A stretch of DNA of 63,700 bases, counting the filler, from Folioceros fuciformis (taxonomy: Eukaryota): NCBI GenBank assembly GCA_049999805.1. It is 13 parts of 13 records of this genome, joined end to end, with 100 filler letters (N's around TTAATTAATTAA, not from the genome) between each part and the next. Parts side by side here need not be neighbours in the genome. Positions count along the whole stretch, not along the records: positions 1 to 13,840 come from JBNGIO010004366.1; 12 more parts are not named here. One strand, 5' to 3'. Under the pieces are notes generated by a model that was not told where the DNA came from, did no database searches, and was given only the letters and a program-made list of their open reading frames with translations. This document shows, piece after piece, positions 1-57,429 of this stretch (position 1 is the stretch's first letter; every line of letters starts with the position of its first letter). A program made the translations under genes and the position numbers.

Positions 1-997
1 GGACGACTTGATACTCGCATGTAACAGTCCCTCCTTTATCACAAAAATTAATGGCCTCCTATCCAAGAAGTTCGATATGTCAAACTTAGGAGCTTTACAA
101 AGCTGCCTTGGCATTCATATTCAGAGAGATCGAAAGAAAAGAGTTTTAACTCTCACTCAACCAAGATACCTTCTTGATAGCGTAGACCAGCTTGGACTCA
201 AGGATGCAAAGCCTGCAGTCACACCTCTACCAAGTGGACTTAAGCTCAGCAAATCCATGAGCCCACAAACGCAAGCTGAAAAGGACAAAATGCTTCCTAT
301 CCCTTACCGCAAGGCAGTAGGAAAGCTCATATATGCAGCAAACACTACTCGTCCTGAAGTGGCATATTCCACAAGTGTGCTCTCACAATACTTGGAAAAC
401 CCTGCACAGGAGCACTGGACTTGTGTTAAGAGGGTATTTCGATACTTAAAGGGGACAGCACAGTATGGAATCGTTTACAAATACAAACCTGATGCCTCCC
501 TTGAACTGGATGTATATACCGATTCAGACTACGCTGGTGACATAGACAGTAGAAGATCTGTCTCTGGATATATCGTCATGTTTGCTGGGGGACCAATCTG
601 TTGGTCCAGCAAGAAGCAACCAACGGTTGCTCTTTCAAGCACAGAAGCCGAGTACCGTGTCCTCACAGCCGCTTCTAAAGAAATTGCTTGGTGCAAGCTG
701 CTTTTCAATGAACTCGGACTACCTCTCCCCACCTGCACAGTGATCAAAACAGACAGTCAGGGTTCTATAAACCTTGCACAAAACCCTGTGCATCACTCAC
801 GGACAAAACACGTTGAGGTGGAGTATCATTTCATCAGAGACTTGATTAAGAGTGGACAGGTTATACTTGAGTATGTGCCAACAGCAGAAAATCCAGCAGA
901 TATTATGACAAAAGCCCTAGGTAGGGAGCTGCACGAGAGGCACATGAAATGTTTAGGAATGGGGAAGCCGAATGACTTCCTCAGTCCTGCAGTTTAG
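1..997 (+). CDS. copia Pol C-terminal part (end of RT + RNase H), 5'-partial
   Basis: YTDSDYAGD, SSTEAEY, HSRTKHVEVEYHFIRD and NPADIMTKAL RNase H motifs; identical to 6926-7922. Confidence 0.96.
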   Translation, partial: DDLILACNSPSFITKINGLLSKKFDMSNLGALQSCLGIHIQRDRKKRVLTLTQPRYLLDSVDQLGLKDAKPAVTPLPSGLKLSKSMSPQTQAEKDKMLPIPYRKAVGKLIYAANTTRPEVAYSTSVLSQYLENPAQEHWTCVKRVFRYLKGTAQYGIVYKYKPDASLELDVYTDSDYAGDIDSRRSVSGYIVMFAGGPICWSSKKQPTVALSSTEAEYRVLTAASKEIAWCKLLFNELGLPLPTCTVIKTDSQGSINLAQNPVHHSRTKHVEVEYHFIRDLIKSGQVILEYVPTAENPADIMTKALGRELHERHMKCLGMGKPNDFLSPAV

Positions 998-1006
998 TGA
1001 CCCAAA

Positions 1007-1865
1007 CTACCAGTCTACGCTGTTTTCTTCCACACTATTTACAGCCACACTTGCACGACTGCCAAAGGAATCAGGCTCAGAGGAATCAGGATCATGTTCG
1101 GAAGGAGTGGTGAAGCTCTCATCCGATCTTGGAGAGTTTCTCTTCCTACGCTCCACGTAGGAGATCCTCTCCTCAGTCTCAAGGCTGTGCTCTTCCTCCA
1201 GCCTTAGTTCAGATCCTGCAGGGCAAGTGGGAGCTTGTTAGAGAACTGTGAGAAGAAAGCAATGGGGATGCTGACATAAAAGTAGACAGGGAACACTTGC
1301 TGTAAAAGCTGACCACATGGCGCTGATACTCGCGGCAGTGCTCTATCCTCACTCGTATCATCTTCAGATGGGTGTAAGGGCACTTATACCACAGAGGGGT
1401 ACAAGGAATAGCAAAAGAACCAAGGCTCACAATCTTGGTTTCCTCATCAGAGTGTGTAGGAACTGGAAATCTTATCGGCACAGTAGGCCTATAGTCAGAA
1501 TCAGCATACGCGAACTCACCAGCTTTGAAGCGGAACTTGGCACTTTGATCCCTTGAAAGAGACTTCTCTTTAGGGGTAGCCGTCTTGCGGGGAGCTGCCT
1601 TAAACGCAACAGCAGCCTTTGTCTTATAGGCTGTAGTCTCTGACGAGCGCCGCTGATCAAGAAAAGCTTTGGTGGTGCCGCGCGGCCTCCCTCGCGAACG
1701 CCTTCCGCCGCTGCCACCTTGAGCAGCAGGAGCAGGCATCTTTGCCGATCCTTGCTGCTGAGAGGAGGCGGCTGTTCTAGTCGGCTTGCTCACAAACCGC
1801 CCTAGCTTGTCACGATGGCAGACACGGCGCTTTGCAGGAGGGGAGTCAGTAGCTGAAGACGACAT
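1007..1865 (-). CDS. Putative spliced antisense accessory gene of the copia element (exons 1865-1520 and 1215-1007; ~184 aa; basic AT-hook/NLS N-terminus, acidic C-terminus)
   Basis: ATG at 1865. Consensus donor G|GTGAGT at 1520/1519. CTAAC branch site and TGCAG acceptor at 1216. Phases match and open a second exon (GSELRLEEEHSLETEERISYVERRKRNSPRSDESF...VDW*) ending 9 nt from the pol stop. The unspliced ORF 1209-1949 is also open. Confidence 0.6.
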
Positions 1866-2127
1866 CTTGAGCTCAGAGATCCTACGCTCCAACAGCTTAC
1901 AAATAAAGGACTTGAAGCGAGGAGGGATGCTATAAGGGTCGCGACGCACCTGCTACCTAAGTTTGTGCAGATACGCTCCATCGCGTTTCTTTAAAGGCAA
2001 AGGTGTCGGCGCAACCCAGTACATGCACACAGCGGAGCTTTCAGCTCAGCTCACAGTCTCACACTCGACCCGTGTTAGAGAAGGCGAAGAGGAGACGTCC
2101 GAATCGTCATAATCCAACAAGTGGGAG

Positions 2128-2359
2128 TGAAGGAGTATTGATGTTGGCATAATGAGATTAGGGTTATATTATATCCAGTTTCATATTGTGTGTATAGTTT
2201 AAAATGTCTTACCTCTTCGCTAGGGTTACGACTGTTAGTAATAGTCACACCCATTCATGAATAGTTAAGTTTAAGTTTTAATGTTTTACTAACTCTCTTT
2301 TTCTTGAATATATACAATGTTATTTTTATAATAAATCTACATCTGCATGTAATTTCTTA
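2128..2359 (+). repeat. LTR of the copia element (~230 nt; TG...TA)
   Basis: AT-rich segment between purine tract AAGTGGGAG (2119-2127) and the PBS at 2360. The 5' boundary could alternatively be 2136 (TATTG). Confidence 0.8.
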
Positions 2360-2371
2360 TGGTATCAGAGC
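2360..2371 (+). promoter_or_regulatory. Primer-binding site complementary to initiator tRNA-Met
   Basis: TGGTATCAGAGC, the canonical plant copia PBS; repeated at 9285-9296. Confidence 0.95.
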
Positions 2372-2719
2372 TTCTGATGTAGGTTACATTCAAATGAGTG
2401 TACATTAGATTGTGCATTTAATTTCATGCACAATCATGTCTCTTTTGCTTTCTTTCAAAAGGAAATTAGGTTTCTTTTTGAGAAAAGAAAAGAACATATT
2501 AAAATTCTTGTAGAAATTTTCTTTATATTTTATAAGGAGATGTGCTAAACCTGGATCTTGTTCCAGTGCATCTCTAGTCAGATTGCCTTAGGCAATTCTG
2601 GTAGAGGTACACTAGAACAACCGCCAGATCTTGCATACAGATTTCTGAAAATTATAGAGAATAGCTTACAGAAATGCATATAATTTGCATTTTACAAGCT
2701 TCTACAAATTTAGCCGTAA

Positions 2720-3428
2720 ATGGCTACCAATGGAAACAATGTCTGGCGCATTCCTGTTGAGCGTGCAAACAACAACAGGAGGCAGCAAAATGGAAATCAA
2801 AACAGGCACAATCTTGTTGAGTACATCCATCAACACATTGTGACATGGCTGTTGCGCAATCAAGATCTGCCTGATCTCTGCAGAAACCTACAGGAGGCCT
2901 TCAATACAATAGTGGAGACTCTCTACCCTGGTCAGAGATATTTGACTTTTGCTCCTTACTTTCCCAGACAGTCGATTCCACAAGTGGTGCGATTGCAGCG
3001 ATCTTCTGGTGGTAACCCTAATCATAGGGGACTTCTCACAACACATGCTGCATCAGACACAGGGATTTTTTCAGTTACTAACCAGGCTTGAATCATATCA
3101 AAACCACATAAAAAGAAATCATGGCAGTGTCATTCGACGCCTTATTGAGTCTAGTGCTGGTATTCAAAGTCTGAAAGAACAAATCTCTCACCTGAATTTC
3201 AAACTGTTGACTTTGTCGAGATCACATTTGCTTGCTAATTCCCCTCATTCTGGAGTATTACGCAGGCATACAAATAAGACAAACAGAAGTCACAGGTTTG
3301 ATGCACCCAATTGTTGCCCATCATACTCCACCCACGCAAACAATAAGTGGAAGATGAGGCATTTAAAACTAGAAAACAGTTCAACAGCAGCACAGTGCAG
3401 AGTTTCAAACCCTGTTTATGTTCTGTGA
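2720..3428 (+). CDS. Upstream sense accessory ORF(s) of the copia element (2720-3091 and overlapping 2949-3428), function unknown
   Basis: Two overlapping open frames in the 1.2-kb leader between PBS and gag, with helical/coiled-coil-like composition and no recognised motif. Confidence 0.45.
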
Positions 3429-3554
3429 TTGCTGATGTCTTCATGAACCAGGTATCATTTGTCCCCTAACATCTGTTCCTAGAACTCTGTTGTGATTAAC
3501 CTGCACAGCACAGGTTACAACTTCACACATTAGTGTCTGTTAAATCCTACAAAC

Positions 3555-5687
3555 ATGGGTGACGAAGATACCACACCCAAACTGTCCTATAACATAGGCA
3601 GTGACATGTTTAAGGAAAAGGACAGGTTCGGAGGGGAGAATTACGATATCTGGGTAATGAGGATGCAGGGTGCTCTTCAGAACAGAGGACTCTGGGATGT
3701 AACAACCGGAGATGATAAGTTAGATACAGATGATGCAGCAACTGTCAAGGCATGGACAGTCAGAAATGACGCAGCCATGTACATGATACGGTGTGGCCTA
3801 ACCTCTGAAATGTTGAGGCACACTTCAGGAGCAGTATCTGCATCAGATATCTGGTCTAGACTTCGTGAGCTTTACTCTGGTGGAAATTCAACCAGTCAGA
3901 TGGCAGCCCTCAAAAACCTTCAACTCTGCAAGATGCGAGATGGTGACTCAGTAGAAAAGCACATTGCTACTTTCAGACATCTTGTTTCTAAGTTGGAAGG
4001 AACAACACAGGAAGCCATCAAGGAAGATATGTTAGCACTTTATTTAATGCTTTCTTTACCTGCCTCCTGGTCGAATTTTGTGACTTCTTATAACACCTCA
4101 CAGGCACAAGCTCAGAAACTGGCATCTGCAGCCAGGATCAAGCTACCTCCCATGACCTTTTCTGAGTTAGTGGGAGCACTTCTTCAAGAAGAAGCCACGA
4201 GAGGTGGACCTAAGCATGGGAAACAGCAAGCACTCTACACCTCAAACAAGGGCAGAGGAAACAAACCATACCCTAGAGGCAAAAATACTACACCTATTGC
4301 AGGGAGCTCACAGGGAGCTTCCTCACAGAAGAAACCCAAGAAGACCGGGAAATGCAACTGGTGCAAAATTCCCGGCCATTGGGAAAACGAGTGTCGTAAG
4401 AAGCAGGCTGGCATACCTCGCAAGGAGGGCAATGCGAATGCTGAAACACACGTTGTAGTAAAGAAGCAATCCTCTCCTTCCGCCCTGACAGTAGGCGTAA
4501 GGGAGTTTTCTCAACCTCTAGTCTTTCCCACATGCTTATCTGCCATAGCAGAGTCTAGACCATTTCAAGAGTGGTACTTAGACACAGGTGCAACAGCGCA
4601 CATTTGCTTTGATAGAAGTGCCTTCTCCACCTACAGACAAGTAAAGGATCAGTTTGTCTATTTAGGTGATGACAGGGCATTGGTATCTCCAGGAAAGGGC
4701 ACAGTGTTCCTTCCTGTCCCTTCAGGGCTAAAACTGTCCCTTACCAATGTTTACTATGTGCCTGGAATGACTAGGAACCTCATTTCTGTCAGGCAACTGA
4801 ACATAGACAACAACAGTCACATTCTGTTTACCCCCACAGAGTGCCAGATCCTTGATGCATTTGATCATCGCAAGGTTTTAGCTTATGGATCTTCTGACCA
4901 TGATCTATTCCGACTTCACTTGCACAGTATCCCTGTGCAGTCCCACTTGACGTCACAAGGTGACCTCTCACCTTCACATCAAACAGACAAAGCCATATTA
5001 TGGCACAATAGGTTAGGTCATCCACATGGTGCTAAGCTGCAAAAACTGGCTACCAGTGACCTATACTATGATGGAAAGATTGGCACTCTTCCTACCTTAC
5101 CCCTGTGTGAAGCTTGTGTGTTATCTAAGCGTCACCAAGCAGCCTTCAAAAACAGGACCCCACACAGAGCCTCTGATGTCCTCGAGCTAGTCCACACTGA
5201 TATTTGTGGGCCACTGTCACAGCCTTCCATAGGTGGTGGCAAGTATTTCTTAACCTTCACTGATGACAAGACAAGGTTTGTCATGGCTTATATCTTGAAG
5301 GCCAAAAGTGAAGCCTTCTCTCAATTCAAAACTTATTTAAAATTTGTTGAGAGATGGACAGGACAACAGCTCAAGACCCTCCGCTCCGATAACGGAGGAG
5401 AATTCACATCTAACGAATTTCAAACATATTGTGCAGAGGAGGGTATTGGGCGCCAACTCACCGTCGTGTATACACCACAGCAAAATGGCGTTGCAGAGCG
5501 CCTGAATTTGACTTTGCAGGAGATGGTTTCCTCCTTGCTGCATCAGGCTACCTTACCATTGCCCTATTGGGCTGAGGCCCTAATGACAGCTGTGTATTTA
5601 CGAAATAGATTACCTACCACTGCAGTTGTCGGTCAGACGCCATATGAGGCTTTCTTTGGCAGGAAACCGTCTATCCTTCATCTTTGA
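3555..5687 (+). CDS. copia Gag-protease-integrase
   Basis: Gag N-terminus FGGENYDIW; zinc knuckle CNWCKIPGHWENEC; protease WYLDTGAT; integrase WHNRLGH...CEAC, HTDICGP, LRSDNGGEF, NGVAER. Ends at an in-frame TGA in place of the usual Arg of HLRTFGC. Confidence 0.96.
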   Translation: MGDEDTTPKLSYNIGSDMFKEKDRFGGENYDIWVMRMQGALQNRGLWDVTTGDDKLDTDDAATVKAWTVRNDAAMYMIRCGLTSEMLRHTSGAVSASDIWSRLRELYSGGNSTSQMAALKNLQLCKMRDGDSVEKHIATFRHLVSKLEGTTQEAIKEDMLALYLMLSLPASWSNFVTSYNTSQAQAQKLASAARIKLPPMTFSELVGALLQEEATRGGPKHGKQQALYTSNKGRGNKPYPRGKNTTPIAGSSQGASSQKKPKKTGKCNWCKIPGHWENECRKKQAGIPRKEGNANAETHVVVKKQSSPSALTVGVREFSQPLVFPTCLSAIAESRPFQEWYLDTGATAHICFDRSAFSTYRQVKDQFVYLGDDRALVSPGKGTVFLPVPSGLKLSLTNVYYVPGMTRNLISVRQLNIDNNSHILFTPTECQILDAFDHRKVLAYGSSDHDLFRLHLHSIPVQSHLTSQGDLSPSHQTDKAILWHNRLGHPHGAKLQKLATSDLYYDGKIGTLPTLPLCEACVLSKRHQAAFKNRTPHRASDVLELVHTDICGPLSQPSIGGGKYFLTFTDDKTRFVMAYILKAKSEAFSQFKTYLKFVERWTGQQLKTLRSDNGGEFTSNEFQTYCAEEGIGRQLTVVYTPQQNGVAERLNLTLQEMVSSLLHQATLPLPYWAEALMTAVYLRNRLPTTAVVGQTPYEAFFGRKPSILHL

Positions 5688-7922
5688 ACCTTTGGTTGTA
5701 TCGCTTATGCTTTCATCCCGAAGGAGAAGCGTAAGAAGCTATCTGCAAAAGCCAGAAAACTCCTTATGATAGGCTACACTGAGGGCATAAAAGCTTATAA
5801 ACTGTATGATGTCCCTCAGAACAAGGTGGTATATGCACGAAGCGTTACCTTTGACGAAGGACGTGTTTGGACGCCAGTGGGAACACCTCCCACTCCAGAT
5901 GATAGTGATGATCTGTCTGTTCTCCCCAATATCACTTTCTTTGATGACTCAACACCTGAGGAGATTGCTCCTGCAGGGGGGGATGAGCATGATAATCAAG
6001 ATAATCAAGTTAATCAAGTTGACCCAGCAGAGGACGATGCTTTTGCTGACCTTGATGAGCAGCAGCAGCAACCTCCCATTGCTGTTGAGCTACAACCAGA
6101 ACCGGACATACTAGATCCAGATTATGATGACGTTGCAGACGATGCAGCCGTTGTTCTGGACAGTGATGATGATGCTGATGCAGTTGAACAGCTACCACAT
6201 CCTGAACCCCCACCTGAACGTCGATACCCTGCAAGAGAAAGACATGCACCTGATTACTATCAATCACATGATTTCAGGTCAAGTTCAGCACGTGCTAATG
6301 CTATGAGTCTGGACCCTACAGAGCCTCGCACCTATGAAGAAGCTATGAGTAGGCCAGATGCTGCAGAGTGGAAAAAGGCCGTTCAGTCTGAGTATGACAG
6401 CCTCATCAAGAATGGCACTTGGGAACTCGCAAACTTACCTCCTGGACGCAAAATGGTGTCCTGTAAATGGGTATTTAAACTCAAGGTTAAAGCAGATGGT
6501 ACCTTTGATAGGTACAAAGCCAGACTCGTTGCTCGTGGCTTCTCCCAAGTACCAGGTCTGGATTATCTGGAAACTTATGCTCCTGTGGTGAAGCTAGCCA
6601 CGTTTCGTGTTCTCTGCGCAGTAGCAGCACACCATGACTATGAGTTGGAAATGTTTGACGTCAAAACAGCCTTCTTACATGGCAAGCTGGATACTGAAAT
6701 CTATATGCAGCAACCAATGGGCTACGTAGTAAAGGGAAAAGAGGACCATGTTCTTCGCCTAATCAAGACCCTGTATGGTTTAAAACAGTCAGCTCTTGAA
6801 TGGAATGCAGTCTTAGATGAGGAACTGCGAGCTTTAGGCTTCATCAAATGTGTTTCAGACAGTAGCCTGTATGTCTATAGGGCTGGAGACACTGTATGTT
6901 ACCTTGCTGTGTATGNNNNNNNNNNGGACGACTTGATACTCGCATGTAACAGTCCCTCCTTTATCACAAAAATTAATGGCCTCCTATCCAAGAAGTTCGA
7001 TATGTCAAACTTAGGAGCTTTACAAAGCTGCCTTGGCATTCATATTCAGAGAGATCGAAAGAAAAGAGTTTTAACTCTCACTCAACCAAGATACCTTCTT
7101 GATAGCGTAGACCAGCTTGGACTCAAGGATGCAAAGCCTGCAGTCACACCTCTACCAAGTGGACTTAAGCTCAGCAAATCCATGAGCCCACAAACGCAAG
7201 CTGAAAAGGACAAAATGCTTCCTATCCCTTACCGCAAGGCAGTAGGAAAGCTCATATATGCAGCAAACACTACTCGTCCTGAAGTGGCATATTCCACAAG
7301 TGTGCTCTCACAATACTTGGAAAACCCTGCACAGGAGCACTGGACTTGTGTTAAGAGGGTATTTCGATACTTAAAGGGGACAGCACAGTATGGAATCGTT
7401 TACAAATACAAACCTGATGCCTCCCTTGAACTGGATGTATATACCGATTCAGACTACGCTGGTGACATAGACAGTAGAAGATCTGTCTCTGGATATATCG
7501 TCATGTTTGCTGGGGGACCAATCTGTTGGTCCAGCAAGAAGCAACCAACGGTTGCTCTTTCAAGCACAGAAGCCGAGTACCGTGTCCTCACAGCCGCTTC
7601 TAAAGAAATTGCTTGGTGCAAGCTGCTTTTCAATGAACTCGGACTACCTCTCCCCACCTGCACAGTGATCAAAACAGACAGTCAGGGTTCTATAAACCTT
7701 GCACAAAACCCTGTGCATCACTCACGGACAAAACACGTTGAGGTGGAGTATCATTTCATCAGAGACTTGATTAAGAGTGGACAGGTTATACTTGAGTATG
7801 TGCCAACAGCAGAAAATCCAGCAGATATTATGACAAAAGCCCTAGGTAGGGAGCTGCACGAGAGGCACATGAAATGTTTAGGAATGGGGAAGCCGAATGA
7901 CTTCCTCAGTCCTGCAGTTTAG
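5688..7922 (+). CDS. copia integrase C-terminus, reverse transcriptase and RNase H (same frame as the upstream ORF)
   Basis: TFGCIAYA...IGY, KWVFKLK, RYKARLVARGF, DVKTAFL, LYGLKQS, YxDD and RNase H motifs. Confidence 0.96.
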   Translation, partial: TFGCIAYAFIPKEKRKKLSAKARKLLMIGYTEGIKAYKLYDVPQNKVVYARSVTFDEGRVWTPVGTPPTPDDSDDLSVLPNITFFDDSTPEEIAPAGGDEHDNQDNQVNQVDPAEDDAFADLDEQQQQPPIAVELQPEPDILDPDYDDVADDAAVVLDSDDDADAVEQLPHPEPPPERRYPARERHAPDYYQSHDFRSSSARANAMSLDPTEPRTYEEAMSRPDAAEWKKAVQSEYDSLIKNGTWELANLPPGRKMVSCKWVFKLKVKADGTFDRYKARLVARGFSQVPGLDYLETYAPVVKLATFRVLCAVAAHHDYELEMFDVKTAFLHGKLDTEIYMQQPMGYVVKGKEDHVLRLIKTLYGLKQSALEWNAVLDEELRALGFIKCVSDSSLYVYRAGDTVCYLAVYXXXXDDLILACNSPSFITKINGLLSKKFDMSNLGALQSCLGIHIQRDRKKRVLTLTQPRYLLDSVDQLGLKDAKPAVTPLPSGLKLSKSMSPQTQAEKDKMLPIPYRKAVGKLIYAANTTRPEVAYSTSVLSQYLENPAQEHWTCVKRVFRYLKGTAQYGIVYKYKPDASLELDVYTDSDYAGDIDSRRSVSGYIVMFAGGPICWSSKKQPTVALSSTEAEYRVLTAASKEIAWCKLLFNELGLPLPTCTVIKTDSQGSINLAQNPVHHSRTKHVEVEYHFIRDLIKSGQVILEYVPTAENPADIMTKALGRELHERHMKCLGMGKPNDFLSPAV

Positions 7923-7931
7923 TGACCCAAA

Positions 7932-8790
7932 CTACCAGTCTACGCTGTTTTCTTCCACACTATTTACAGCCACACTTGCACGACTGCCAAAGGAATCAGG
8001 CTCAGAGGAATCAGGATCATGTTCGGAAGGAGTGGTGAAGCTCTCATCCGATCTTGGAGAGTTTCTCTTCCTACGCTCCACGTAGGAGATCCTCTCCTCA
8101 GTCTCAAGGCTGTGCTCTTCCTCCAGCCTTAGTTCAGATCCTGCAGGGCAAGTGGGAGCTTGTTAGAGAACTGTGAGAAGAAAGCAATGGGGATGCTGAC
8201 ATAAAAGTAGACAGGGAACACTTGCTGTAAAAGCTGACCACATGGCGCTGATACTCGCGGCAGTGCTCTATCCTCACTCGTATCATCTTCAGATGGGTGT
8301 AAGGGCACTTATACCACAGAGGGGTACAAGGAATAGCAAAAGAACCAAGGCTCACAATCTTGGTTTCCTCATCAGAGTGTGTAGGAACTGGAAATCTTAT
8401 CGGCACAGTAGGCCTATAGTCAGAATCAGCATACGCGAACTCACCAGCTTTGAAGCGGAACTTGGCACTTTGATCCCTTGAAAGAGACTTCTCTTTAGGG
8501 GTAGCCGTCTTGCGGGGAGCTGCCTTAAACGCAACAGCAGCCTTTGTCTTATAGGCTGTAGTCTCTGACGAGCGCCGCTGATCAAGAAAAGCTTTGGTGG
8601 TGCCGCGCGGCCTCCCTCGCGAACGCCTTCCGCCGCTGCCACCTTGAGCAGCAGGAGCAGGCATCTTTGCCGATCCTTGCTGCTGAGAGGAGGCGGCTGT
8701 TCTAGTCGGCTTGCTCACAAACCGCCCTAGCTTGTCACGATGGCAGACACGGCGCTTTGCAGGAGGGGAGTCAGTAGCTGAAGACGACAT
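7932..8790 (-). CDS. Second copy of the putative spliced antisense accessory gene
   Basis: Same as 1007-1865, offset by 6925. Confidence 0.6.
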
Positions 8791-9052
8791 CTTGAGCTCA
8801 GAGATCCTACGCTCCAACAGCTTACAAATAAAGGACTTGAAGCGAGGAGGGATGCTATAAGGGTCGCGACGCACCTGCTACCTAAGTTTGTGCAGATACG
8901 CTCCATCGCGTTTCTTTAAAGGCAAAGGTGTCGGCGCAACCCAGTACATGCACACAGCGGAGCTTTCAGCTCAGCTCACAGTCTCACACTCGACCCGTGT
9001 TAGAGAAGGCGAAGAGGAGACGTCCGAATCGTCATAATCCAACAAGTGGGAG

Positions 9053-9284
9053 TGAAGGAGTATTGATGTTGGCATAATGAGATTAGGGTTATATTATATC
9101 CAGTTTCATATTGTGTGTATAGTTTAAAATGTCTTACCTCTTCGCTAGGGTTACGACTGTTAGTAATAGTCACACCCATTCATGAATAGTTAAGTTTAAG
9201 TTTTAATGTTTTACTAACTCTCTTTTTCTTGAATATATACAATGTTATTTTTATAATAAATCTACATCTGCATGTAATTTCTTA
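9053..9284 (+). repeat. LTR, second copy
   Basis: Same as 2128-2359, followed by the PBS at 9285. Confidence 0.8.
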
Positions 9285-9644
9285 TGGTATCAGAGCTTCT
9301 GATGTAGGTTACATTCAAATGAGTGTACATTAGATTGTGCATTTAATTTCATGCACAATCATGTCTCTTTTGCTTTCTTTCAAAAGGAAATTAGGTTTCT
9401 TTTTGAGAAAAGAAAAGAACATATTAAAATTCTTGTAGAAATTTTCTTTATATTTTATAAGGAGATGTGCTAAACCTGGATCTTGTTCCAGTGCATCTCT
9501 AGTCAGATTGCCTTAGGCAATTCTGGTAGAGGTACACTAGAACAACCGCCAGATCTTGCATACAGATTTCTGAAAATTATAGAGAATAGCTTACAGAAAT
9601 GCATATAATTTGCATTTTACAAGCTTCTACAAATTTAGCCGTAA

Positions 9645-10353
9645 ATGGCTACCAATGGAAACAATGTCTGGCGCATTCCTGTTGAGCGTGCAAACAACAA
9701 CAGGAGGCAGCAAAATGGAAATCAAAACAGGCACAATCTTGTTGAGTACATCCATCAACACATTGTGACATGGCTGTTGCGCAATCAAGATCTGCCTGAT
9801 CTCTGCAGAAACCTACAGGAGGCCTTCAATACAATAGTGGAGACTCTCTACCCTGGTCAGAGATATTTGACTTTTGCTCCTTACTTTCCCAGACAGTCGA
9901 TTCCACAAGTGGTGCGATTGCAGCGATCTTCTGGTGGTAACCCTAATCATAGGGGACTTCTCACAACACATGCTGCATCAGACACAGGGATTTTTTCAGT
10001 TACTAACCAGGCTTGAATCATATCAAAACCACATAAAAAGAAATCATGGCAGTGTCATTCGACGCCTTATTGAGTCTAGTGCTGGTATTCAAAGTCTGAA
10101 AGAACAAATCTCTCACCTGAATTTCAAACTGTTGACTTTGTCGAGATCACATTTGCTTGCTAATTCCCCTCATTCTGGAGTATTACGCAGGCATACAAAT
10201 AAGACAAACAGAAGTCACAGGTTTGATGCACCCAATTGTTGCCCATCATACTCCACCCACGCAAACAATAAGTGGAAGATGAGGCATTTAAAACTAGAAA
10301 ACAGTTCAACAGCAGCACAGTGCAGAGTTTCAAACCCTGTTTATGTTCTGTGA
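9645..10353 (+). CDS. Upstream sense accessory ORF(s), second copy
   Basis: Same as 2720-3428. Confidence 0.45.
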
Positions 10354-10479
10354 TTGCTGATGTCTTCATGAACCAGGTATCATTTGTCCCCTAACATCTG
10401 TTCCTAGAACTCTGTTGTGATTAACCTGCACAGCACAGGTTACAACTTCACACATTAGTGTCTGTTAAATCCTACAAAC

Positions 10480-13400
10480 ATGGGTGACGAAGATACCACA
10501 CCCAAACTGTCCTATAACATAGGCAGTGACATGTTTAAGGAAAAGGACAGGTTCGGAGGGGAGAATTACGATATCTGGGTAATGAGGATGCAGGGTGCTC
10601 TTCAGAACAGAGGACTCTGGGATGTAACAACCGGAGATGATAAGTTAGATACAGATGATGCAGCAACTGTCAAGGCATGGACAGTCAGAAATGACGCAGC
10701 CATGTACATGATACGGTGTGGCCTAACCTCTGAAATGTTGAGGCACACTTCAGGAGCAGTATCTGCATCAGATATCTGGTCTAGACTTCGTGAGCTTTAC
10801 TCTGGTGGAAATTCAACCAGTCAGATGGCAGCCCTCAAAAACCTTCAACTCTGCAAGATGCGAGATGGTGACTCAGTAGAAAAGCACATTGCTACTTTCA
10901 GACATCTTGTTTCTAAGTTGGAAGGAACAACACAGGAAGCCATCAAGGAAGATATGTTAGCACTTTATTTAATGCTTTCTTTACCTGCCTCCTGGTCGAA
11001 TTTTGTGACTTCTTATAACACCTCACAGGCACAAGCTCAGAAACTGGCATCTGCAGCCAGGATCAAGCTACCTCCCATGACCTTTTCTGAGTTAGTGGGA
11101 GCACTTCTTCAAGAAGAAGCCACGAGAGGTGGACCTAAGCATGGGAAACAGCAAGCACTCTACACCTCAAACAAGGGCAGAGGAAACAAACCATACCCTA
11201 GAGGCAAAAATACTACACCTATTGCAGGGAGCTCACAGGGAGCTTCCTCACAGAAGAAACCCAAGAAGACCGGGAAATGCAACTGGTGCAAAATTCCCGG
11301 CCATTGGGAAAACGAGTGTCGTAAGAAGCAGGCTGGCATACCTCGCAAGGAGGGCAATGCGAATGCTGAAACACACGTTGTAGTAAAGAAGCAATCCTCT
11401 CCTTCCGCCCTGACAGTAGGCGTAAGGGAGTTTTCTCAACCTCTAGTCTTTCCCACATGCTTATCTGCCATAGCAGAGTCTAGACCATTTCAAGAGTGGT
11501 ACTTAGACACAGGTGCAACAGCGCACATTTGCTTTGATAGAAGTGCCTTCTCCACCTACAGACAAGTAAAGGATCAGTTTGTCTATTTAGGTGATGACAG
11601 GGCATTGGTATCTCCAGGAAAGGGCACAGTGTTCCTTCCTGTCCCTTCAGGGCTAAAACTGTCCCTTACCAATGTTTACTATGTGCCTGGAATGACTAGG
11701 AACCTCATTTCTGTCAGGCAACTGAACATAGACAACAACAGTCACATTCTGTTTACCCCCACAGAGTGCCAGATCCTTGATGCATTTGATCATCGCAAGG
11801 TTTTAGCTTATGGATCTTCTGACCATGATCTATTCCGACTTCACTTGCACAGTATCCCTGTGCAGTCCCACTTGACGTCACAAGGTGACCTCTCACCTTC
11901 ACATCAAACAGACAAAGCCATATTATGGCACAATAGGTTAGGTCATCCACATGGTGCTAAGCTGCAAAAACTGGCTACCAGTGACCTATACTATGATGGA
12001 AAGATTGGCACTCTTCCTACCTTACCCCTGTGTGAAGCTTGTGTGTTATCTAAGCGTCACCAAGCAGCCTTCAAAAACAGGACCCCACACAGAGCCTCTG
12101 ATGTCCTCGAGCTAGTCCACACTGATATTTGTGGGCCACTGTCACAGCCTTCCATAGGTGGTGGCAAGTATTTCTTAACCTTCACTGATGACAAGACAAG
12201 GTTTGTCATGGCTTATATCTTGAAGGCCAAAAGTGAAGCCTTCTCTCAATTCAAAACTTATTTAAAATTTGTTGAGAGATGGACAGGACAACAGCTCAAG
12301 ACCCTCCGCTCCGATAACGGAGGAGAATTCACATCTAACGAATTTCAAACATATTGTGCAGAGGAGGGTATTGGGCGCCAACTCACCGTCGTGTATACAC
12401 CACAGCAAAATGGCGTTGCAGAGCGCCTGAATTTGACTTTGCAGGAGATGGTTTCCTCCTTGCTGCATCAGGCTACCTTACCATTGCCCTATTGGGCTGA
12501 GGCCCTAATGACAGCTGTGTATTTACGAAATAGATTACCTACCACTGCAGTTGTCGGTCAGACGCCATATGAGGCTTTCTTTGGCAGGAAACCGTCTATC
12601 CTTCATCTTTGAACCTTTGGTTGTATCGCTTATGCTTTCATCCCGAAGGAGAAGCGTAAGAAGCTATCTGCAAAAGCCAGAAAACTCCTTATGATAGGCT
12701 ACACTGAGGGCATAAAAGCTTATAAACTGTATGATGTCCCTCAGAACAAGGTGGTATATGCACGAAGCGTTACCTTTGACGAAGGACGTGTTTGGACGCC
12801 AGTGGGAACACCTCCCACTCCAGATGATAGTGATGATCTGTCTGTTCTCCCCAATATCACTTTCTTTGATGACTCAACACCTGAGGAGATTGCTCCTGCA
12901 GGGGGGGATGAGCATGATAATCAAGATAATCAAGTTAATCAAGTTGACCCAGCAGAGGACGATGCTTTTGCTGACCTTGATGAGCAGCAGCAGCAACCTC
13001 CCATTGCTGTTGAGCTACAACCAGAACCGGACATACTAGATCCAGATTATGATGACGTTGCAGACGATGCAGCCGTTGTTCTGGACAGTGATGATGATGC
13101 TGATGCAGTTGAACAGCTACCACATCCTGAACCCCCACCTGAACGTCGATACCCTGCAAGAGAAAGACATGCACCTGATTACTATCAATCACATGATTTC
13201 AGGTCAAGTTCAGCACGTGCTAATGCTATGAGTCTGGACCCTACAGAGCCTCGCACCTATGAAGAAGCTATGAGTAGGCCAGATGCTGCAGAGTGGAAAA
13301 AGGCCGTTCAGTCTGAGTATGACAGCCTCATCAAGAATGGCACTTGGGAACTCGCAAACTTACCTCCTGGACGCAAAATGGTGTCCTGTAAATGGGTATT

Positions 13401-13840
13401 TAAACTCAAGGTTAAAGCAGATGGTACCTTTGATAGGTACAAAGCCAGACTCGTTGCTCGTGGCTTCTCCCAAGTACCAGGTCTGGATTATCTGGAAACT
13501 TATGCTCCTGTGGTGAAGCTAGCCACGTTTCGTGTTCTCTGCGCAGTAGCAGCACACCATGACTATGAGTTGGAAATGTTTGACGTCAAAACAGCCTTCT
13601 TACATGGCAAGCTGGATACTGAAATCTATATGCAGCAACCAATGGGCTACGTAGTAAAGGGAAAAGAGGACCATGTTCTTCGCCTAATCAAGACCCTGTA
13701 TGGTTTAAAACAGTCAGCTCTTGAATGGAATGCAGTCTTAGATGAGGAACTGCGAGCTTTAGGCTTCATCAAATGTGTTTCAGACAGTAGCCTGTATGTC
13801 TATAGGGCTGGAGACACTGTATGTTACCTTGCTGTGTATG
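10480..13840 (+). CDS. copia Gag-Pol, second copy (TGA at 12610-12612; truncated in RT by the scaffold end)
   Basis: Translation identical to 3555-6915. Confidence 0.95.
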
Positions 13841-13940
13841 NNNNNNNNNNNNNNNNNNNNNNNNNNNNNNNNNNNNNNNNNNNNTTAATTAATTAANNNN
13901 NNNNNNNNNNNNNNNNNNNNNNNNNNNNNNNNNNNNNNNN
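13841..13940. other. Artificial scaffold-joining spacer N44-TTAATTAATTAA-N44 (also ~15769, 18096, 22540, 27857, 29447, 36349, 40349, 46409, 49236, 53371, 59872)
   Basis: Identical 100-nt cassette with stops in all six frames recurring 12 times; flanking sequences are unrelated. Confidence 0.98.
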
Positions 13941-29940: not shown

Positions 29941-32900
29941 TATCAGGTCTGGTCCATCCACTCAACCATAGCAGGGAACCTACAAGAACCCTGTAAGGTA
30001 TAATCTCCATCTCCTTTTGCTCAGCAGGTGTCTTGGGGCACTGATCTTGTGTCAGGGTAGTCCCCACTGCAGCTGGAGTTGTTGCCGACTTCACATTTTG
30101 CATGTTGAACTTCTCAAGTAATTTGTTCACATAATGCTGCTCGTGGAGAAACACACTTCCCGTCATTGGGTTCATGAGTGCTTGGACACCTAGGAAGAAT
30201 TTGCAAGGGCCCGAATCTGTCATTTTGAATTCTGATGACAAGATACGCTTTACCTCTTTTATCATGCCATCATCGGACCCAAAAATTATTGTGTCGTTGA
30301 CGTACACCGCTAGGTAAGCAGTTCACCCTTTCTTCTTATATACATACACACTGCCATCAGCATCTGATTGCTTAAACCCTCTCCTTACAAGGTATGCATG
30401 TAGCCTCAAGTTCCACCCACGATTTGATTGTTTGAGGCCGTACTACATCTTCTTCAGCCTACAAACCTTGCTTGGGTGCTTGGCATCAATGTAACCTTCA
30501 GGTTGTATCATGTATACCTCTTCTTCAAGGAGGCCATTAAGGAATGCCGTTTGTACATCCATCTGGTGGACATGATAACCTTGCAGGGCAGCGATGGCCA
30601 TGAGTGCTCTTAGTGATGACGCGCGCACAACGGGGGAAAAGGTCTCATTATAATCTATCCCTTCTCTCTGGGAAAATCCACGCACCACTAGTCTAGCCTT
30701 GAACCTAGCTGTAGTGCCATCAGGGTTGAGTTTCCTTTTGAACACCCATTTGTTTGAAATCGGGCTCCTTCCATGAGGTAAATCAACTAATTCCCACGTC
30801 TCGTTCTCAATGAGAGAATCATACTCTGATTGGATCGCTGCCTGCCACTGCTCCTTCTCCGGTGAGTTGATGGCTTCTTTGTAGGATGCTGGTTCACCAA
30901 GGTCTTGGGTTGCTATGAGTATTTGAGCTAGCATGGCATTCGTGTTTACATTCGGCCGTATGTGCCCTTCCATGGCAAGTGGCACTTGACTCCATTCCAG
31001 GGGAGAGCTTGTGTGGTGTATCGCTGACCTCCTAAGCGTAGCAAGCTGACCAGGTTCACGCTGTGTTGGTACATTGGTATCAGCTTCACCCTCACTTGCA
31101 TTGGCCTCAAATGTATCATCAACATCAGTGTCAACTTGTATGCCCTGAGCTGAAGTATGGCGTGGGGCTTGTGGTAGAGCTGCTTGTGGCTGACTCATAC
31201 TTGGAATTATTTGCTCAAATTCAGAGTCACTATCGCTATGGAGTTCAGCAACCTGAGAGTCAGGCATCAGATCCTTCCTCCCCACCTCTCGGGCACAAGC
31301 GGCAACCAACAAGCTGTGTTCATCAAATATACCAACACGAGTGTGAGTAACATGGCCGGAGTTAGGGTCATATACCTTATACCCTTTGATACCCTCAGTA
31401 TATCCAATGAAGGTCATAGCACGGGCCTGGTAATCCAGCTTCCTCTGTTGGGTCTTTGGAATGTGCATATACACACGGCTGCCAAATATTTTCAGATGTG
31501 AAATGGATGGTTTACGACCAGGCCACCGCTCATATGGGGTAGCTCCTATGAAAGAAGAAGTGGGCAAACGATTTTGCACATATGTTGCAGTTTGTACTGC
31601 ATCTGCCCAATAGTGCTTGGATAAACCGGATTGATATAGCATGGCCTTGGCTGCTTCTTGGAGGTATCTGTTTTTCGCCTCTGCCAATGGGATTTGGCTG
31701 GATGTGTGCGAGGAAGTCAGTTGGCGGGCAATGCCAAGGGAACGACAATATGATTGAAAATCGCCGCTAATAAATTCGCCCCCATTATCAGTCCTAAGCA
31801 CCTTGAGAGTTTTCCCGGTTTGTTGTTGAGAAAAATCCACATATTGTTTGAATATTTCTAGAGCCTCACTCTTATGTCGCAAAAAATATGTGACAGTATA
31901 TCTGCTGTAGTCATCAATGACAGCCATAAAGTAAAGGGAACCACCAAGAGATGGTGTTGACATGGGTCTACAAAGATCCGTATGGATCATTTCCAGTAGG
32001 TCAGAGGCACGGTTCTGCTCACCGTTCTTAGGCTTCTTCTTGACCATTTTACTATGGATACAGGCGCCACATAATACATGTGTATCAGTAACCTTCCAAT
32101 CGAGTTTCTCACGGTACAGCTCCTGCTCTGTCATCCGTCTCATCTTTGTGAAGTTTTGATGTGCAAGCCTTGAATGCCACAGGAGCTGAGGATCATCATG
32201 TGTAAGACGTTTGGCCAACATGGCTTGAGATGTTGAATTGGCTTGTGGATTTCCAGCAGGGGATGTGATACAGTCCAGCTTGTATAAATCAGCTTGCAGG
32301 GTACCAAGGGCCAGGATGTGGTCTGTCTGCGTCTCTCGCAGCTCACAGTGGTTTTCGCTGAAAGGGATATTAACCATCCAGTCCTTGCAAAGATGCTGAA
32401 CTGACATTAGATTTTTACACATCTGTGGAACGTGTAGCACTTGGTGAAGCAAGCGGGTGGATCCATCTTGCAGCTGAATTTGCTGGGTGGATCCATCTTG
32501 CAGCTGAATTTGCTGGGTGGATCCATCTTGCAGCTGAATTTGCTCGGTGCCGCAGCCAGCAATTGCAAGTCCACTCCCATCTCCAAGTAGGACAAACTGT
32601 CCAGGTGCATAGGTGTTATAGTTGATAAAGCCTTCTCGCATGTAGCATATGTGCGCGGAGGCACCTGAGTCGACAAACCAATGATCTTGATCAGCCTTGG
32701 TGTGTGCGAGGAACACAGGAAGGATGGTGTTTGGATTTGTCGTTTTGGCCCGGGCAGCAACATGAGCCTCCAATGCTCTCCTCGGCTCCTCGGCCTTTTT
32801 CTTTCTGCAATCGGCATCTATGTGTCCTACAAGACGGCACCAATTACAGGTGAGTTTCCTATGGTTGGGGTTTGGCGGAGCTCGACCTTCATGTGTCTTG

Positions 32901-43162: not shown

Positions 43163-43715
43163 TCTTTTGGAGATGTAGACCGTGTTTAGGGATGAAAAGT
43201 AATGGGCGACCTGATGGAAACTGCATTTGTCTCCCGGACTTAGGGTCGTCTCGAAGTTTGTCCAGCATGAACGAGGAATGAGCACCTAGAATCAAACGCA
43301 AGGCTGGCCGGTAGGAAGAGTCCAGCCCGGACAGATACAGGAAGAAAGTATCAAATGAATAATATTGAATGCCTCGGTTTGTTTTTAGCGAATTCACTGT
43401 AGGTTTAATTGTGGAGACGGCTCGAGTCCCGACATCCATGGTGCATCGTCTCCTACTTTGCACTACCTACCCCCGACCTGCCATCAAATTCTGTACTCGT
43501 CCTCAGTCTTGGGTTGTGGGTCTTGAAGGTGCTAGGAAGTGGGAAGGGTCTGCTCCGTTGTCAGATCTCTCAGGCCTCTTTGAAGCAAGTATTTGTAGTT
43601 CGTGTTCACTGCTCTGTTTTGCAGACCTGTGGCAGGGTGCGGGAGGCTTACAGGTGTGCTTGCGATCGTCACTCAAGGAGCTGCTGTTCTCGTTCTGTTT
43701 GATTCACATGTAGTG

Positions 43716-46408
43716 ATGAAGAAGGCCTCTGCGTTGCACGGTAGGGAAGGGCGGCTTGTGCATTGCAATTTTGGTGGTGGTGCAGCCTTGTGGATGTGCG
43801 TGTTGCTCACGATCACTTCGCTGGGAAGCAAGGTCGGTGCAGAACTCTCTCCCGATGGACGGCACCTGCTGAATTTTCTACAAGACAACACTTTAGTTCT
43901 GGACCATAGCTTGGCCTTCGCAAGCTGGAATGCGAGCGAGGATACGCCGTGTGATTGGGTACGGGTATTCTGTAACCCCGAGTCCGCTGTGCGCAGGCTC
44001 GATCTTTCCTCCTGCACTGTGTCGGCGTTGCCCGACCCGGACCCGTCGCTTTCGTTTTTTGTCAGGAATCTCAATCTATCCCAGTTGGGCTATCTTCGAA
44101 GCCTTCAAGAACTGGACATGTCGTCCAACCGTGAAGTGGGTGGCAACGGTGATGACTTCCAGTCCTTGACTGGGCTCACATGGCTGGATCTTTCCGGATC
44201 TTATTTTCGCGTAGGGGGGTATTCAGATATCCTACCCGCCCTTCCCAGCCTCCAGTATCTGCATGCGGACGAGACCGCATGGAGTGGGGTTTTCATCCAG
44301 AGCTTCGGCGGGATGCGGGAGCTGCTGGTGGTCTCTCTTGCAAACAATTTCGAGGGAGACACCATACCTAAGGAAGTGGGGAATCTGACCCAACTCAAGA
44401 ACCTGGATCTGTCTAGTAATTCCTTCATTGGAGGGATCCCCAGTTTGGAGGGACTTACACGCCTCACCCAACTCTCTATACGCAGGAACCAGCTTAGCGG
44501 GGATGTTCCCACTGCACCCAATCTGCAATACCTGGACGCGGCTGAAAACAATCTCTCGAGCTTGACGCATTCCTTCTTCCAGATGTCCGCTCTGAAGCAG
44601 GTGAATCTTTCCCGGAATCAATTTGTGGGACAACTACCGGACATGAGGCTCAAGCTCAAGCTTCTTGATGTGTTGGATCTGTCCTGGAACGGTCTGCAGG
44701 GTCCCATCCCGTCCGGATTGGGGAACGTGACGCACCTGGACCTGTCTCACAACAACTTGTCTGGCCCCATCCCTCAGGATATCCGTACTTACCCCCTCTC
44801 GAATGTGTACGGATCGGTAGATCTTTCTGGGAATGCGCTGAATGGCAGCATTCCTGCCAGTTTGCTATATGGAGCACACTTCCTGAATCTTTCAAGAAAT
44901 TCTCTGGCTGGCAACATACCAGGTGCTCCGGGAGGTTTGGAGGTTGGACTATACGGTCATGTTGATCTGAGTGACAATCAGCTTGATGGCCCTCTTACTC
45001 TCTCTTTCCTCAGACTTGCTCCACGAGTGCTGTGGCTTCAAAACAACAGCTTCTCTGGTGACTTGATCATCCCTCTCACCCAGGCTTCGATGTACAACTT
45101 CAATCCCAATACTATCCGAGTACAAGGCAACAGTTTCACTGGGGACATCACTCAGTTGCTGAGCAACTCTGGGATGCGGCTGCATTCCTATCTCATGACA
45201 GTTTTTGACTTGAGCCACAACCGTTTGAACATGACACCTTCACACGAGTTCCCCGATCCTTTGCGGAGCCTGCTGGACATGTTCTGTGGGGATAAGGCAC
45301 CTATAATGGAATTTCGGCTGGCAGGCAGCGATCTCATGGGCCAACAATTTCCGGATAGCTTCCAATGTCCCACCCTGCTCCGATTCCTCCAGATCTTGGA
45401 TCTTGCGTCTTTGCAACATGAGCGGACCATTTCCACCTTACGCGTTTCCAATGTCGAGTCCAGCCTGACGTTTCTCAACATGTCCAACAACAGGCTGTCT
45501 GGACCCCTTCCTGAAATGTTACCCGACACCATCACCGTACTGGATCTGAGTAACAACAATTTGGTTTCCGAGGGAGGGATGCCACCTGACCTTTTTACAG
45601 GGCTCCGAAACTTGGTGCATTTCAATGCATCCACCAACAGGCTATCCGGCCCCATTCCAGGAACCTTTCCTCCCACTCTCCGAGTCTTGGACCTTAGCCA
45701 CAACAATCTGACAGGACCGATACCCGGTAATGTTTTCTATGCTTTTCTTCACTTGGAATACATCAACCTGTCAGGCAACAATCTCTCAGGAGTCCTTCCA
45801 GACGACCTGTCTCCGGCTGTCTTTAACGCACGCTCCTTTGCGGACAATCCGGGACTCTGCGGCGGACCTCTTCCCGCGTGTGCCCCCCCAACCCCTCTAC
45901 CTCCTACCAGTCGGATCAATGTGCGGCTGCTTGTGGCAGTAGTAGTTGTCGCTGTATTGGTTTCTACGGGAAGTTGCTTGCTCCTGGTCTGGACATGGAG
46001 AGTGTACTCCAAAAAGCACCAGCAAGATGCGGACTTGATTGCCACGCTGCTGGAGAGGGAAACGGTGACAGTGATGCCCCTTCGCCAGCTCCGCAGACCC
46101 ACCTCCAACTTTTCAGAGTCGGCCCAGATTGGAGTGGGCGGCTTCGGCACAGTCTACACTGGCAAGCTCGCTGACGGCACACGGGTAGCCATCAAGAAGG
46201 GCAAGCGGGAGGGCTCCCCCGAGTACAAGCAGCAGTTTCTCAACGAGGTCAAGATTCTGTCCGGAGTGAATCACAGGCACTTGGTGAAGCTGCTGGGCTG
46301 TTCCATGGAGAACAAAATCGCTCTCCTCGTCTTCGAGTTTGTCCCCAACGGCACACTGCTGGAACATCTCCAGGGGAAAAGAGAAGGATTTTCCCCGCTC
46401 ACTTGGAG
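43716..46408 (+). CDS. Leucine-rich repeat receptor-like kinase, intronless, 3'-partial
   Basis: Signal region; N-cap SWNASEDTPCDWVRVFC; ~20 plant LRRs (LxxLDLSxNxLSGPIP); C-cap FADNPGLCGGPLPAC; TM VRLLVAVVVVAVLVSTGSCLLLVW; kinase IGVGGFGTVY, VAIKK, NHRHLVKLLGC. Confidence 0.96.
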
Positions 46409-57169: not shown

Positions 57170-57429
57170 TGTTACGAAATGGATAATCTGCCCGTAACCC
57201 TGCTGACCAGCTAGTTACCGTAGACCGTAATTAATAGTATTTAATAATTACAAATTGGTGTGCCTCTTCGGAAGAGACACGCAGTGACGCTATTTAAGAC
57301 ACACTTTGTATACACTTTGTAGAGACTAAAACGAAATATCTCTCTGAGCATTGCATCTTGATCATGCTAGACTAGATGCAATCCTAATCATGCTAGATTA
57401 GATGCAATCCTACTACTAGGATTTTAACA
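57170..57429. mobile_element. Solo LTR (260 nt, TGTTA...TAACA) with 5-bp TSD ATATA inside copia RNase H
   Basis: ATATA at 57165-57169 and 57430-57434; excision restores ...KDIGETQDGPTNLFCDNQSAI. Confidence 0.92.

Follow-up and report, generated by a model that had tools for sequence, protein, structure and literature searches.

A candidate antisense gene in the spacer between pol and the polypurine tract of a Ty1/copia retrotransposon from Folioceros fuciformis

We analyzed a 63,700-nt stretch of DNA (the window) from Folioceros fuciformis, assembly GCA_049999805.1, whose positions 1–13,840 are record JBNGIO010004366.1 and consist of a Ty1/copia long terminal repeat (LTR) retrotransposon. The spacer between the stop codon of the element's pol gene and its polypurine tract (PPT) holds a long open reading frame (ORF) on the strand opposite gag-pol, together with splice-like signals that lead from this frame into a second open frame. 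The likeliest reading, which we hold with somewhat less than even confidence, is that the element carries an antisense gene of the aORF-3R/eORF-3′R kind in this spacer. Three properties lead us to it: the excess length of a 247-codon frame, an in-phase splice donor matched to a rare acceptor, and a nucleotide composition specific to the open frames. The features concerned, with proposed exons and introns named as such, are the following.

Positions 2–997, plus strand: 3′ end of the copia pol gene, comprising the end of reverse transcriptase (RT) and RNase H; stop codon TAG at 995–997; Pfam RVT_2 on residues 1–76 of the fragment; 71% identity to protein P0002 through the C terminus.
Positions 998–2142 (1145 nt): the 1.1-kb spacer between the pol stop and the PPT, which holds the antisense ORF.
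Positions 1212–1865, minus strand: unspliced antisense ORF of 218 amino acids (aa), with ATG at 1865 and stop at 1211–1209; the frame is open over 1952–1212, 247 codons from stop to stop.
Positions 1520–1865, minus strand: proposed exon 1 (346 nt, phase 1), encoding a basic N-terminal part with PPAKRR, RDKLGRFV, and RSRGRPR.
Positions 1216–1519, minus strand: proposed intron (304 nt), open throughout in frame 0 as well; it has a GTGAGT donor, a CTAAC branch site, a pyrimidine tract, and a CAG acceptor.
Positions 1007–1215, minus strand: proposed exon 2 in frame 1, which is open over 1237–1010 (a 76-aa frame); it encodes an acidic tail and ends in a stop at 1009–1007.
Positions 1882–1949, minus strand: candidate intron of 68 nt in the 5′ untranslated region (UTR), from CAG|GTGCGT (GT at 1949–1948) to TAG at 1884–1882.
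Within frame 2, open over 1383–1207, minus strand: optional middle exon of 69 nt.
Positions 2120–2135, plus strand: PPT, assigned from its position beside the TG at 2142.
Positions 2142–2359, plus strand: single LTR of ~218 bp, starting with TG; its ends are placed from the PPT and the primer binding site alone, with one LTR copy in the contig.

The antisense ORF exceeds the length expected by chance. A previous, sequence-only reading of this DNA had reported a minus-strand ORF between the pol stop (997) and the PPT, and the ORF is indeed present there. Its position and orientation—flanked by the pol stop (995–997) and the PPT (2120–2135), opposite in strand to gag-pol—are those by which an aORF-3R is recognized; the longest sense frame in 998–2142 amounts to 79 aa. 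Among dinucleotide-preserving shuffles of 998–2142, scored by the longest open frame in any of the six frames, the mean was 107.5 codons, and a frame of at least 247 codons arose in one of 2000. A tandem-repeat scan for a possible cause of the ORF returned only a 15-nt unit present twice, in exon 2, and a tblastn search of the whole window for other copies of either antisense frame returned only the duplicate of the region at 7932–8790 (minus strand, identical, all coordinates +6925). At the level of the ORF this is not a chance pattern, and no tandem repeat accounts for it. The alternative that an assembly error at 1212–1237 had split one long ORF was rejected, as contigs of two DNA runs, X1 and X2, list no indel there. 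With no indel between 1010 and 1865 in these contigs, a simple assembly frameshift is excluded, and the change of frame is real in the dominant form.

These length statistics bear on a rival explanation, namely that the region is a noncoding 3′ spacer within untranslated genomic RNA, its ORF and splice-like motifs being fortuitous and kept by recent amplification from one master copy. We regard this explanation as unlikely, if one to be taken seriously. That so long a frame appeared in a single shuffle out of 2000 speaks against it, as does the ordinary structure of the sense RNA: folding compared with shuffles gave z = −0.31 and −1.06, and hence no structured sense RNA that would explain the spacer.

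The strongest splice signals in the spacer connect the two antisense frames. The donor CTG|GTGAGT (GT at 1519–1518) and an acceptor of the form CTAAC...CCCTGCAG|G ending at 1216, with the spacing CTAAC-N18-CAG|G, join exon 1 to position 1215; this adds 68 codons and yields a 184-aa product whose stop lies 9 nt from the pol stop. The sequence-only reading had proposed exactly this junction, and we recovered its donor (1520/1519), its CTAAC...TGCAG acceptor (1216), the matching phases, and the 184-aa frame running to the stop at 1009–1007. Between the ATG and position 1010 there are 44 GT and 76 AG dinucleotides, and one GT that reaches at least 6/7 of the donor consensus, which is the proposed donor. 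GT–AG pairs with the donor in the open frame number 1411, with 285 reaching the stop at 1009; a good donor combined with a pyrimidine-rich acceptor is found in 2 of these 285, both with the donor at 1519. When an acceptor was required to have CAG|G, pyrimidines at 12 or more of 15 positions, and a CTRAY branch site, none was found elsewhere in the window on either strand. The motif CTAAC-N(10-30)-YYYTGCAGG, expected 0.10 times in the whole window, occurs only here and in the duplicate copy (8140–8166). Donors were scored against a general consensus, and the filters were written after the site had been seen, so these figures are biased upward and flatter the site; this counts in favor of fortuitous motifs. 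Against such fortuity, the donor falls in phase with an acceptor that has both a branch site and a pyrimidine tract, and the 1519 donor with the 1216 acceptor is the best available pair. Base composition follows the proposed boundaries: T content is 31% in the intron vs. 20% and 22% in the exons, and GC content 47.7% in the intron vs. 57.4% in exon 1. A T-richer and GC-poorer composition is the expected direction for plant introns.

The sequence-only reading made two further splicing proposals. Its candidate 5′-UTR intron (1949–1882) has the sequence claimed for it, supported solely by a donor that passes the 6-of-7 filter. For its optional in-phase middle exon the open frame exists, and the donor, G|GTCAGC, is weak by our reading.

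Over the 6.9-kb unit (1–6915), donor-like sites at ≥6/7 of the consensus number six on the minus strand (6438, 5461, 4971, 3191, 1949, and 1519) and zero on the plus strand. This asymmetry, together with the good splice signals, would suit a spliced noncoding antisense RNA that regulates the element, for example by pairing with the genomic RNA into double-stranded RNA (dsRNA) or through interference with transcription, while its ORF remains untranslated. Antisense transcripts of micropia, TART, and IAP and a role for dsRNA are discussed in PMC7264820 (cited here, like PMC4093653 and PMC6317226, from part of its text). Such an RNA would need neither a 247-codon open frame nor codon-position composition within open frames, and we give the explanation very little credence. 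The same strand bias could mean that splice donors are avoided in the genomic RNA.

Nucleotide composition distinguishes the proposed exons from the proposed intron. The gag-pol of this element served to train a codon-position nucleotide model, whose log-likelihood scores, in bits, are as follows for each segment.

Exon 1 (1865–1521): proposed frame +2.3; same strand −13.2 and −16.6; reverse complement −19.3, −0.4, and −10.0.
Exon 2 (1213–1010): proposed frame +5.7; same strand −9.6 and −13.4; reverse complement −3.6, −6.5, and −5.1.
Proposed intron (1520–1212): open frame −5.0; same strand −11.7 and −7.0; reverse complement −6.4, −9.3, and −9.0.
gag control: true frame +4.5; same strand −14.4 and −18.7; reverse complement all negative.
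RNase H control: true frame +6.8; same strand −13.6 and −18.7; reverse complement all negative.

The proposed frame outscores the other five in each exon, with margins that resemble those of the gag and RNase H controls, and the intron as a whole is negative in all six frames. Such segment scores favor a putative exon–intron–exon layout. Composition like that of gag-pol in two separate frames, exactly where each is open, also speaks against a noncoding spacer.

An exon–intron–exon layout with real-looking splice signals and coding-like exons is, at the same time, the pattern of host genomic DNA. The region could accordingly be a captured fragment of a host gene—two exons and their intron—that entered antisense at the DNA level and is now a functionless passenger. 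Gene capture by plant LTR retrotransposons is documented (Bs1, and surveys of rice and sorghum; PMC7264820, in part), and the element has a second unexplained insert, of 1.2 kb, in its leader. We nonetheless consider this origin improbable. Neither exon resembles any plant or other protein in searches that covered 5.8 billion clusters and 1.84 billion representatives, with entries from NCBI nr, UniRef, and EukProt. An ATG and a stop of its own bound the ORF, which sits neatly in the interval from the pol stop to the PPT. Captures usually exist in one or a few copies, according to the portion of PMC7264820 consulted, whereas the ORF here belongs to the dominant high-depth form.

Returning to the antisense gene that we favor, a number of observations weigh against it, beginning with composition. 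Neither the segment scores nor the sliding-window scores were calibrated against a null of noncoding background. In sliding 120-nt windows, frame 0 is flat across the first half of exon 1 (1865–1690) and takes positive values between 1692 and 1393, peaking at +6.6 in 1512–1393, wholly inside the proposed intron. The strongest frame-0 signal thus occupies the first ~125 nt of the proposed intron, a poor fit to a plain intron. Frame 2 then rises to +3.2 at 1392–1273 (the optional exon), and frame 1 is positive from ~1300 to 973. The proposed intron, moreover, has no stop in frame 0 for 101 codons, and the frame ends 5 bases past the acceptor; by our arithmetic, which assumes equal codon use, a run of 101 stop-free intron codons has a chance of ~1%, again awkward for a plain intron. 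On present sequence evidence the two-exon layout would be the best single gene model, with conflicting indications for the intron and an unsettled exact exon structure. Possible readings of the open intron are that both the 218-aa and the 184-aa products are made, that the donor lies further downstream than 1519, or that the signal is noise.

Searches for relatives and folds add to the points on this side. The 218-aa ORF, in a word-indexed search, had 240 word-sharing candidates and 0 significant matches, and the homologue search with the 76-aa exon-2 frame returned no match. An exhaustive phmmer search of the 1.84 billion representatives gave one match, P0001 (E = 2.6e-6), which we judged spurious: it is a 398-aa translation of a 98-residue tandem repeat, and its score is the sum of four copies of one 32–38-residue match at 24–31% identity. 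P0001 and ORF residues 138–175 share a PC(A/T)P(I/L)W(Y/F) stretch. Pfam scans at E ≤ 1 and E ≤ 10 gave nothing for the antisense ORF, PDB sequences nothing below E = 0.066 (a designed ankyrin, summed over repeats), and the ESM Atlas no match for the whole ORF or exon 1, with recognition values of 1447 and 1358 vs. the ~2300 typical of known families. AlphaFold2 in single-sequence mode gave a mean pLDDT of 42, with disorder and no fold; residues ~10–30 (PPAKRRVCHRDKLGRFVSK) alone reach a pLDDT of ~70, as a small hairpin. No AATAAA lies on the minus strand within 500 nt after the stop, a result that is not decisive, and a tblastn search of 80 distant copia loci for a similar antisense ORF found nothing below E = 0.26. 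Finally, any ORF of the master copy would persist, even unselected, in a young family of high copy number.

A fortuitous noncoding spacer draws on much of this record: the ORF has no homologue, domain, or fold in these searches, its Atlas recognition value falls in the range common for shuffled sequences, the protein is of low complexity and disordered, and the first half of exon 1 carries no frame signal. How much the missing homologues count is indicated by a coverage control with the neighboring RT–RNase H. That region retrieved 2161 proteins at E ≤ 1e-20, one of which exceeds 49% identity; this is P0002, encoded on a 2509-nt Logan contig. The element family is poorly sampled in the databases, so that the lack of matches to the antisense ORF carries little weight.

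Variation within the family keeps the antisense frames open. Between the contig of JBNGIO010004366.1 and the dominant X1/X2 contigs, 9 substitutions are listed, with 2 indels (after 1009 and at 3066). Within the spacer, three of the substitutions distinguish the dominant form: 1958 T>C lies upstream of the ATG, 1603 A>C corresponds to F88C, and 1299 G>A is synonymous in frame 0 and creates a stop in frame 2, past the end of the optional exon. The one insertion in the spacer, of 12 bases after 1009 and at full depth in X1/X2, adds by our reading four codons in frame just before the stop. Both antisense frames are kept in the dominant high-depth contigs, with 0 indels in 1010–1865. The spacer differences are compatible with coding and are far too few for a selection test. 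With so few differences, decay has had no time to act and the degree of conservation cannot be judged; the 9 listed substitutions and 2 indels accordingly suit the fortuitous spacer as well. Depth is ~150–260 for contigs identical to the window and ~7–27 for diverged contigs (runs of ~0.3 billion letters), values that are not copy numbers; the pattern fits a very abundant, young family. A further run, X5, conjectured to be RNA, gave no coverage of 925–2079 and matched only pol of other copia elements, at ≤95%, which weighs neither for nor against transcription. A read from X3, which comes from a second sample, ends at 1012 in extra letters resembling the 12-base insertion, and the shorter 1009/1010 form in JBNGIO010004366.1 may be a minority variant.

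The predicted product is bipartite in charge. The exon-1 part has a pI of 11.85, with 28 K+R among 115 residues and 13% hydrophobic residues, and the exon-2 part is acidic (pI 4.45). The motifs named by the sequence-only reading—PPAKRR, RDKLGRFV, and an RGRPR core (RSRGRPR, residues 56–62)—are present in the translation. Its description of them as chromatin-protein hallmarks is not supported: they are motifs of 4–8 residues, and no AT_hook, CCT, or other Pfam family is reported at E ≤ 10. For RSRGRPR this concerns the AT_hook family model, in a scan that serves very short models poorly. For the CCT/NF-YA domain there is no Pfam match at the same threshold, and only 17 residues precede the KLGRFV/GRF motif, too few for a CCT domain of ~43 residues, where GRF is the end. 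The label chromatin would thus describe composition rather than classify the protein, and the functional proposal draws on composition and short motifs.

Antisense ORFs so placed are documented in another superfamily. In the text consulted of PMC7264820, antisense ORFs between pol and the 3′ LTR are described for Grande, RIRE2, Retand, pvRetro13, and Boty, none of them like known proteins; the Grande product is reported to be nuclear and to be transcribed from its own promoter. In common bean, antisense ORFs were reported in 15 gypsy families and in 0 of 65 copia families (PMC4093653, in part). These accounts, as far as they were covered, agree with the earlier statement that antisense 3′ ORFs come mainly from gypsy elements and that copia elements are mostly without them. 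For copia elements, Neumann et al. 2019 catalogued extra ORFs of ≥250 codons in 582 elements of 45 groups by position and orientation; in the part consulted, the only extra ORF (eORF) treated as a lineage trait in copia is the sense eORF-3′F of SIRE (PMC6317226). We found no copia antisense 3′ ORF described in the papers searched, which did not include the orientation breakdown of the catalogued copia eORFs; this does not prove that none exists.

The Folioceros ORF resembles several of these systems and departs from each. Grande gene23, the best-studied aORF-3R, from a maize Ty3/gypsy element of the Tat type, is likewise an opposite-strand ORF between pol and the 3′ LTR without known protein relatives; it differs in its gypsy host and very long 3′ internal region, against a Ty1/copia host and a 1.1-kb spacer here, and the searches above found no sequence similarity between the two. 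The ORF2 of bean elements and the ORFs of Retand and RIRE2 agree with ours in position and orientation and encode heterogeneous proteins (PMC4093653 and PMC7264820, in part). The bean ORF2 proteins, as described there, span 211–939 aa, are mutually similar, in some cases have an SMC-like region, and belong to one gypsy clade, whereas the product here would be an orphan of 184–218 aa in a copia element. Searches of the clusters and representatives defined above gave no significant match to the ORFs of Grande/RIRE2, pvRetro ORF2, or Retand, whose presence in those collections is not established. The catalogue of Neumann et al. places extra copia ORFs on record as a class; the frame here, at 247 codons, is just under its 250-codon cut-off, and splicing is not considered in the part consulted. 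The env-like ORF of SIRE/Sirevirus elements also lies between copia pol and the 3′ LTR, in sense orientation, unlike our ORF; a longest sense spacer frame of 79 aa sets the present element apart from that type.

Distant relatives were compared with the element for the length of this spacer. The 80 metagenome copia loci searched above share 35–47% identity with the element, and 65 have ≥300 nt after the pol stop. A direct-repeat pair was present, by our criteria, in 19 of the 65. Six of the 19 pairs were rejected as LTRs, being perfect 122–139-nt overlaps of contig ends that close units of 4.5–5.1 kb, vs. 6.9 kb here. Two candidate extra ORFs were likewise set aside: a 291-aa antisense ORF (L021) is a host UDP-glycosyltransferase beside a false LTR pair, one of the 19, and a sense frame (L002) is the gag of a collapsed contig. 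In 11 of 12 loci with presumed true LTR pairs, the LTR begins 0–270 nt after the pol stop; measured against these, the 1.1-kb spacer here is an added module, and likewise the 1.2-kb leader. In the exception, L057, pol stop and LTR stand ~1440 nt apart; this spacer has a sense frame of 369 codons and an antisense frame of 192 codons and may hold an env-like or other extra ORF.

What we infer about the transcription, splicing, translation, localization, and function of the antisense gene can be set out as a series of conditional steps. Minus-strand transcription would start from a promoter in or just inside the 3′ LTR side; TATA-like words on the minus strand at 2330 and 2314, inside the LTR, are not decisive. 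The predicted product would be a small orphan protein with a strongly basic, disordered N-terminal part that includes a stretch like a nuclear localization signal and the RGRP core, and it would end in an acidic tail if spliced (184 aa) or in a hydrophobic part if unspliced (218 aa). As the gene is antisense, its intron would not be removed from the sense genomic RNA; it would be carried along and copied at each round of retrotransposition. Intron retention in the sense RNA is the logic of antisense-intron reporters. A functional parallel exists in an animal retrovirus: HBZ of HTLV-1 is a spliced antisense gene expressed from the 3′ LTR side, and its product is a nuclear basic bZIP protein. 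The parallel is an analogy of function with no sequence relation. An HTLV antisense promoter is mentioned in PMC7264820 (in part).

By analogy to Grande gene23, the most likely role of such a product would be that of a nuclear nucleic-acid-binding accessory factor modulating the element's own expression or integration. Anti-silencing, integration targeting, and copy-number control by the product are speculation. The fullest form of the proposal—a copia element that has evolved or acquired an antisense accessory gene with an intron, which is transcribed from the element's 3′ end and whose nuclear, AT-hook-like basic/acidic protein aids the very high abundance of the family, for example by countering silencing or guiding integration—we hold to be doubtful, with little confidence.

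Plant Ty3/gypsy elements have long been known to carry antisense accessory ORFs that lack an explanation, and no function is assigned to any of them in the parts of the literature covered. The ORF here would be a copia counterpart, plausible and unproven, to this Ty3/gypsy trait. If true, a compact two-exon copia case would be an independent origin of the trait in the other superfamily and would put the function of such ORFs within reach of experiment in a small, tractable gene (~0.9 kb). Antisense and spliced retrotransposon transcripts are said to deserve attention in the consulted part of PMC7264820, and a genuine copia case would give more weight to annotating them in transposons. Taken with a second extra frame in the leader, the fullest form of the proposal would mean a copia element with a retrovirus-like accessory gene set. 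Should the ORF instead be a chance or relic frame, the lesson would be that a young, high-copy family can show gene-like features without selection.

The remainder of the element identifies it as Ty1/copia, with a copia-type gag and with integrase ahead of RT in one polyprotein. Its other parts are the following.

Positions 2360–2371, plus strand: primer binding site TGGTATCAGAGC, directly after the LTR.
Positions 2372–3554, plus strand: leader of 1.2 kb from the primer binding site to the gag ATG, unusually long.
Positions 2720–3091 and 2949–3428, plus strand: two overlapping sense open frames in the leader.
Positions 3555–6915, continuing into position 1 across the joint, plus strand: gag, protease, integrase, and RT, with one in-frame stop.

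The primer binding site (2360–2371) matches what we take to be the 3′ end of initiator tRNA-Met. The tRNA-Met 3′ end serves as the primer for most copia elements (PMC6317226, in part). Retrotran_gag_2, Pol_BBD, gag_pre-integrs, and rve lie within 3555–5684, and the YVDD motif and RVT_2 follow across the joint into 2–997. The lone in-frame stop, at 5685–5687 (SILHL*TFGC), is within the integrase part, and the frame is unchanged afterwards. Scans with Rfam families and for tRNAs returned none. A Pfam scan of the leader frames 2720–3091 and 2949–3428 found no family; the dominant X1/X2 form is 1 base shorter at 3066, in their overlap, which places both frames in register there. These frames are a possible second extra ORF, upstream of gag.

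The record that carries the element is a doubled contig. Positions 1–13840 comprise a 6915-bp contig twice, with 1–6915 equal to 6926–13840 at 100% and 10 N between, and the contig has the layout of a circularly permuted Ty1/copia element with a single LTR copy. In contigs of X1 and X2 a single T separates 6915 from 1 at the joint, and with it the YVDD motif of RT is restored. A one-LTR circle is the assembler's usual product from a repeated LTR element, so we attach no biological meaning to it; the doubling is probably not a tandem or circular form but an artefact of how a high-copy LTR element was assembled and scaffolded.

Beyond the element, the parts of the window are linked by N44-TTAATTAATTAA-N44 filler. 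Positions 13841–63700 contain a leucine-rich repeat (LRR) receptor kinase with a plant-type LRRNT_2 cap at 43602–46406 (plus strand), which points to a land plant as the most likely source, a decayed copia RT fragment at 55735–57214 (plus strand), too broken for comparison, and another copia polyprotein fragment at 30446–32773 (minus strand).

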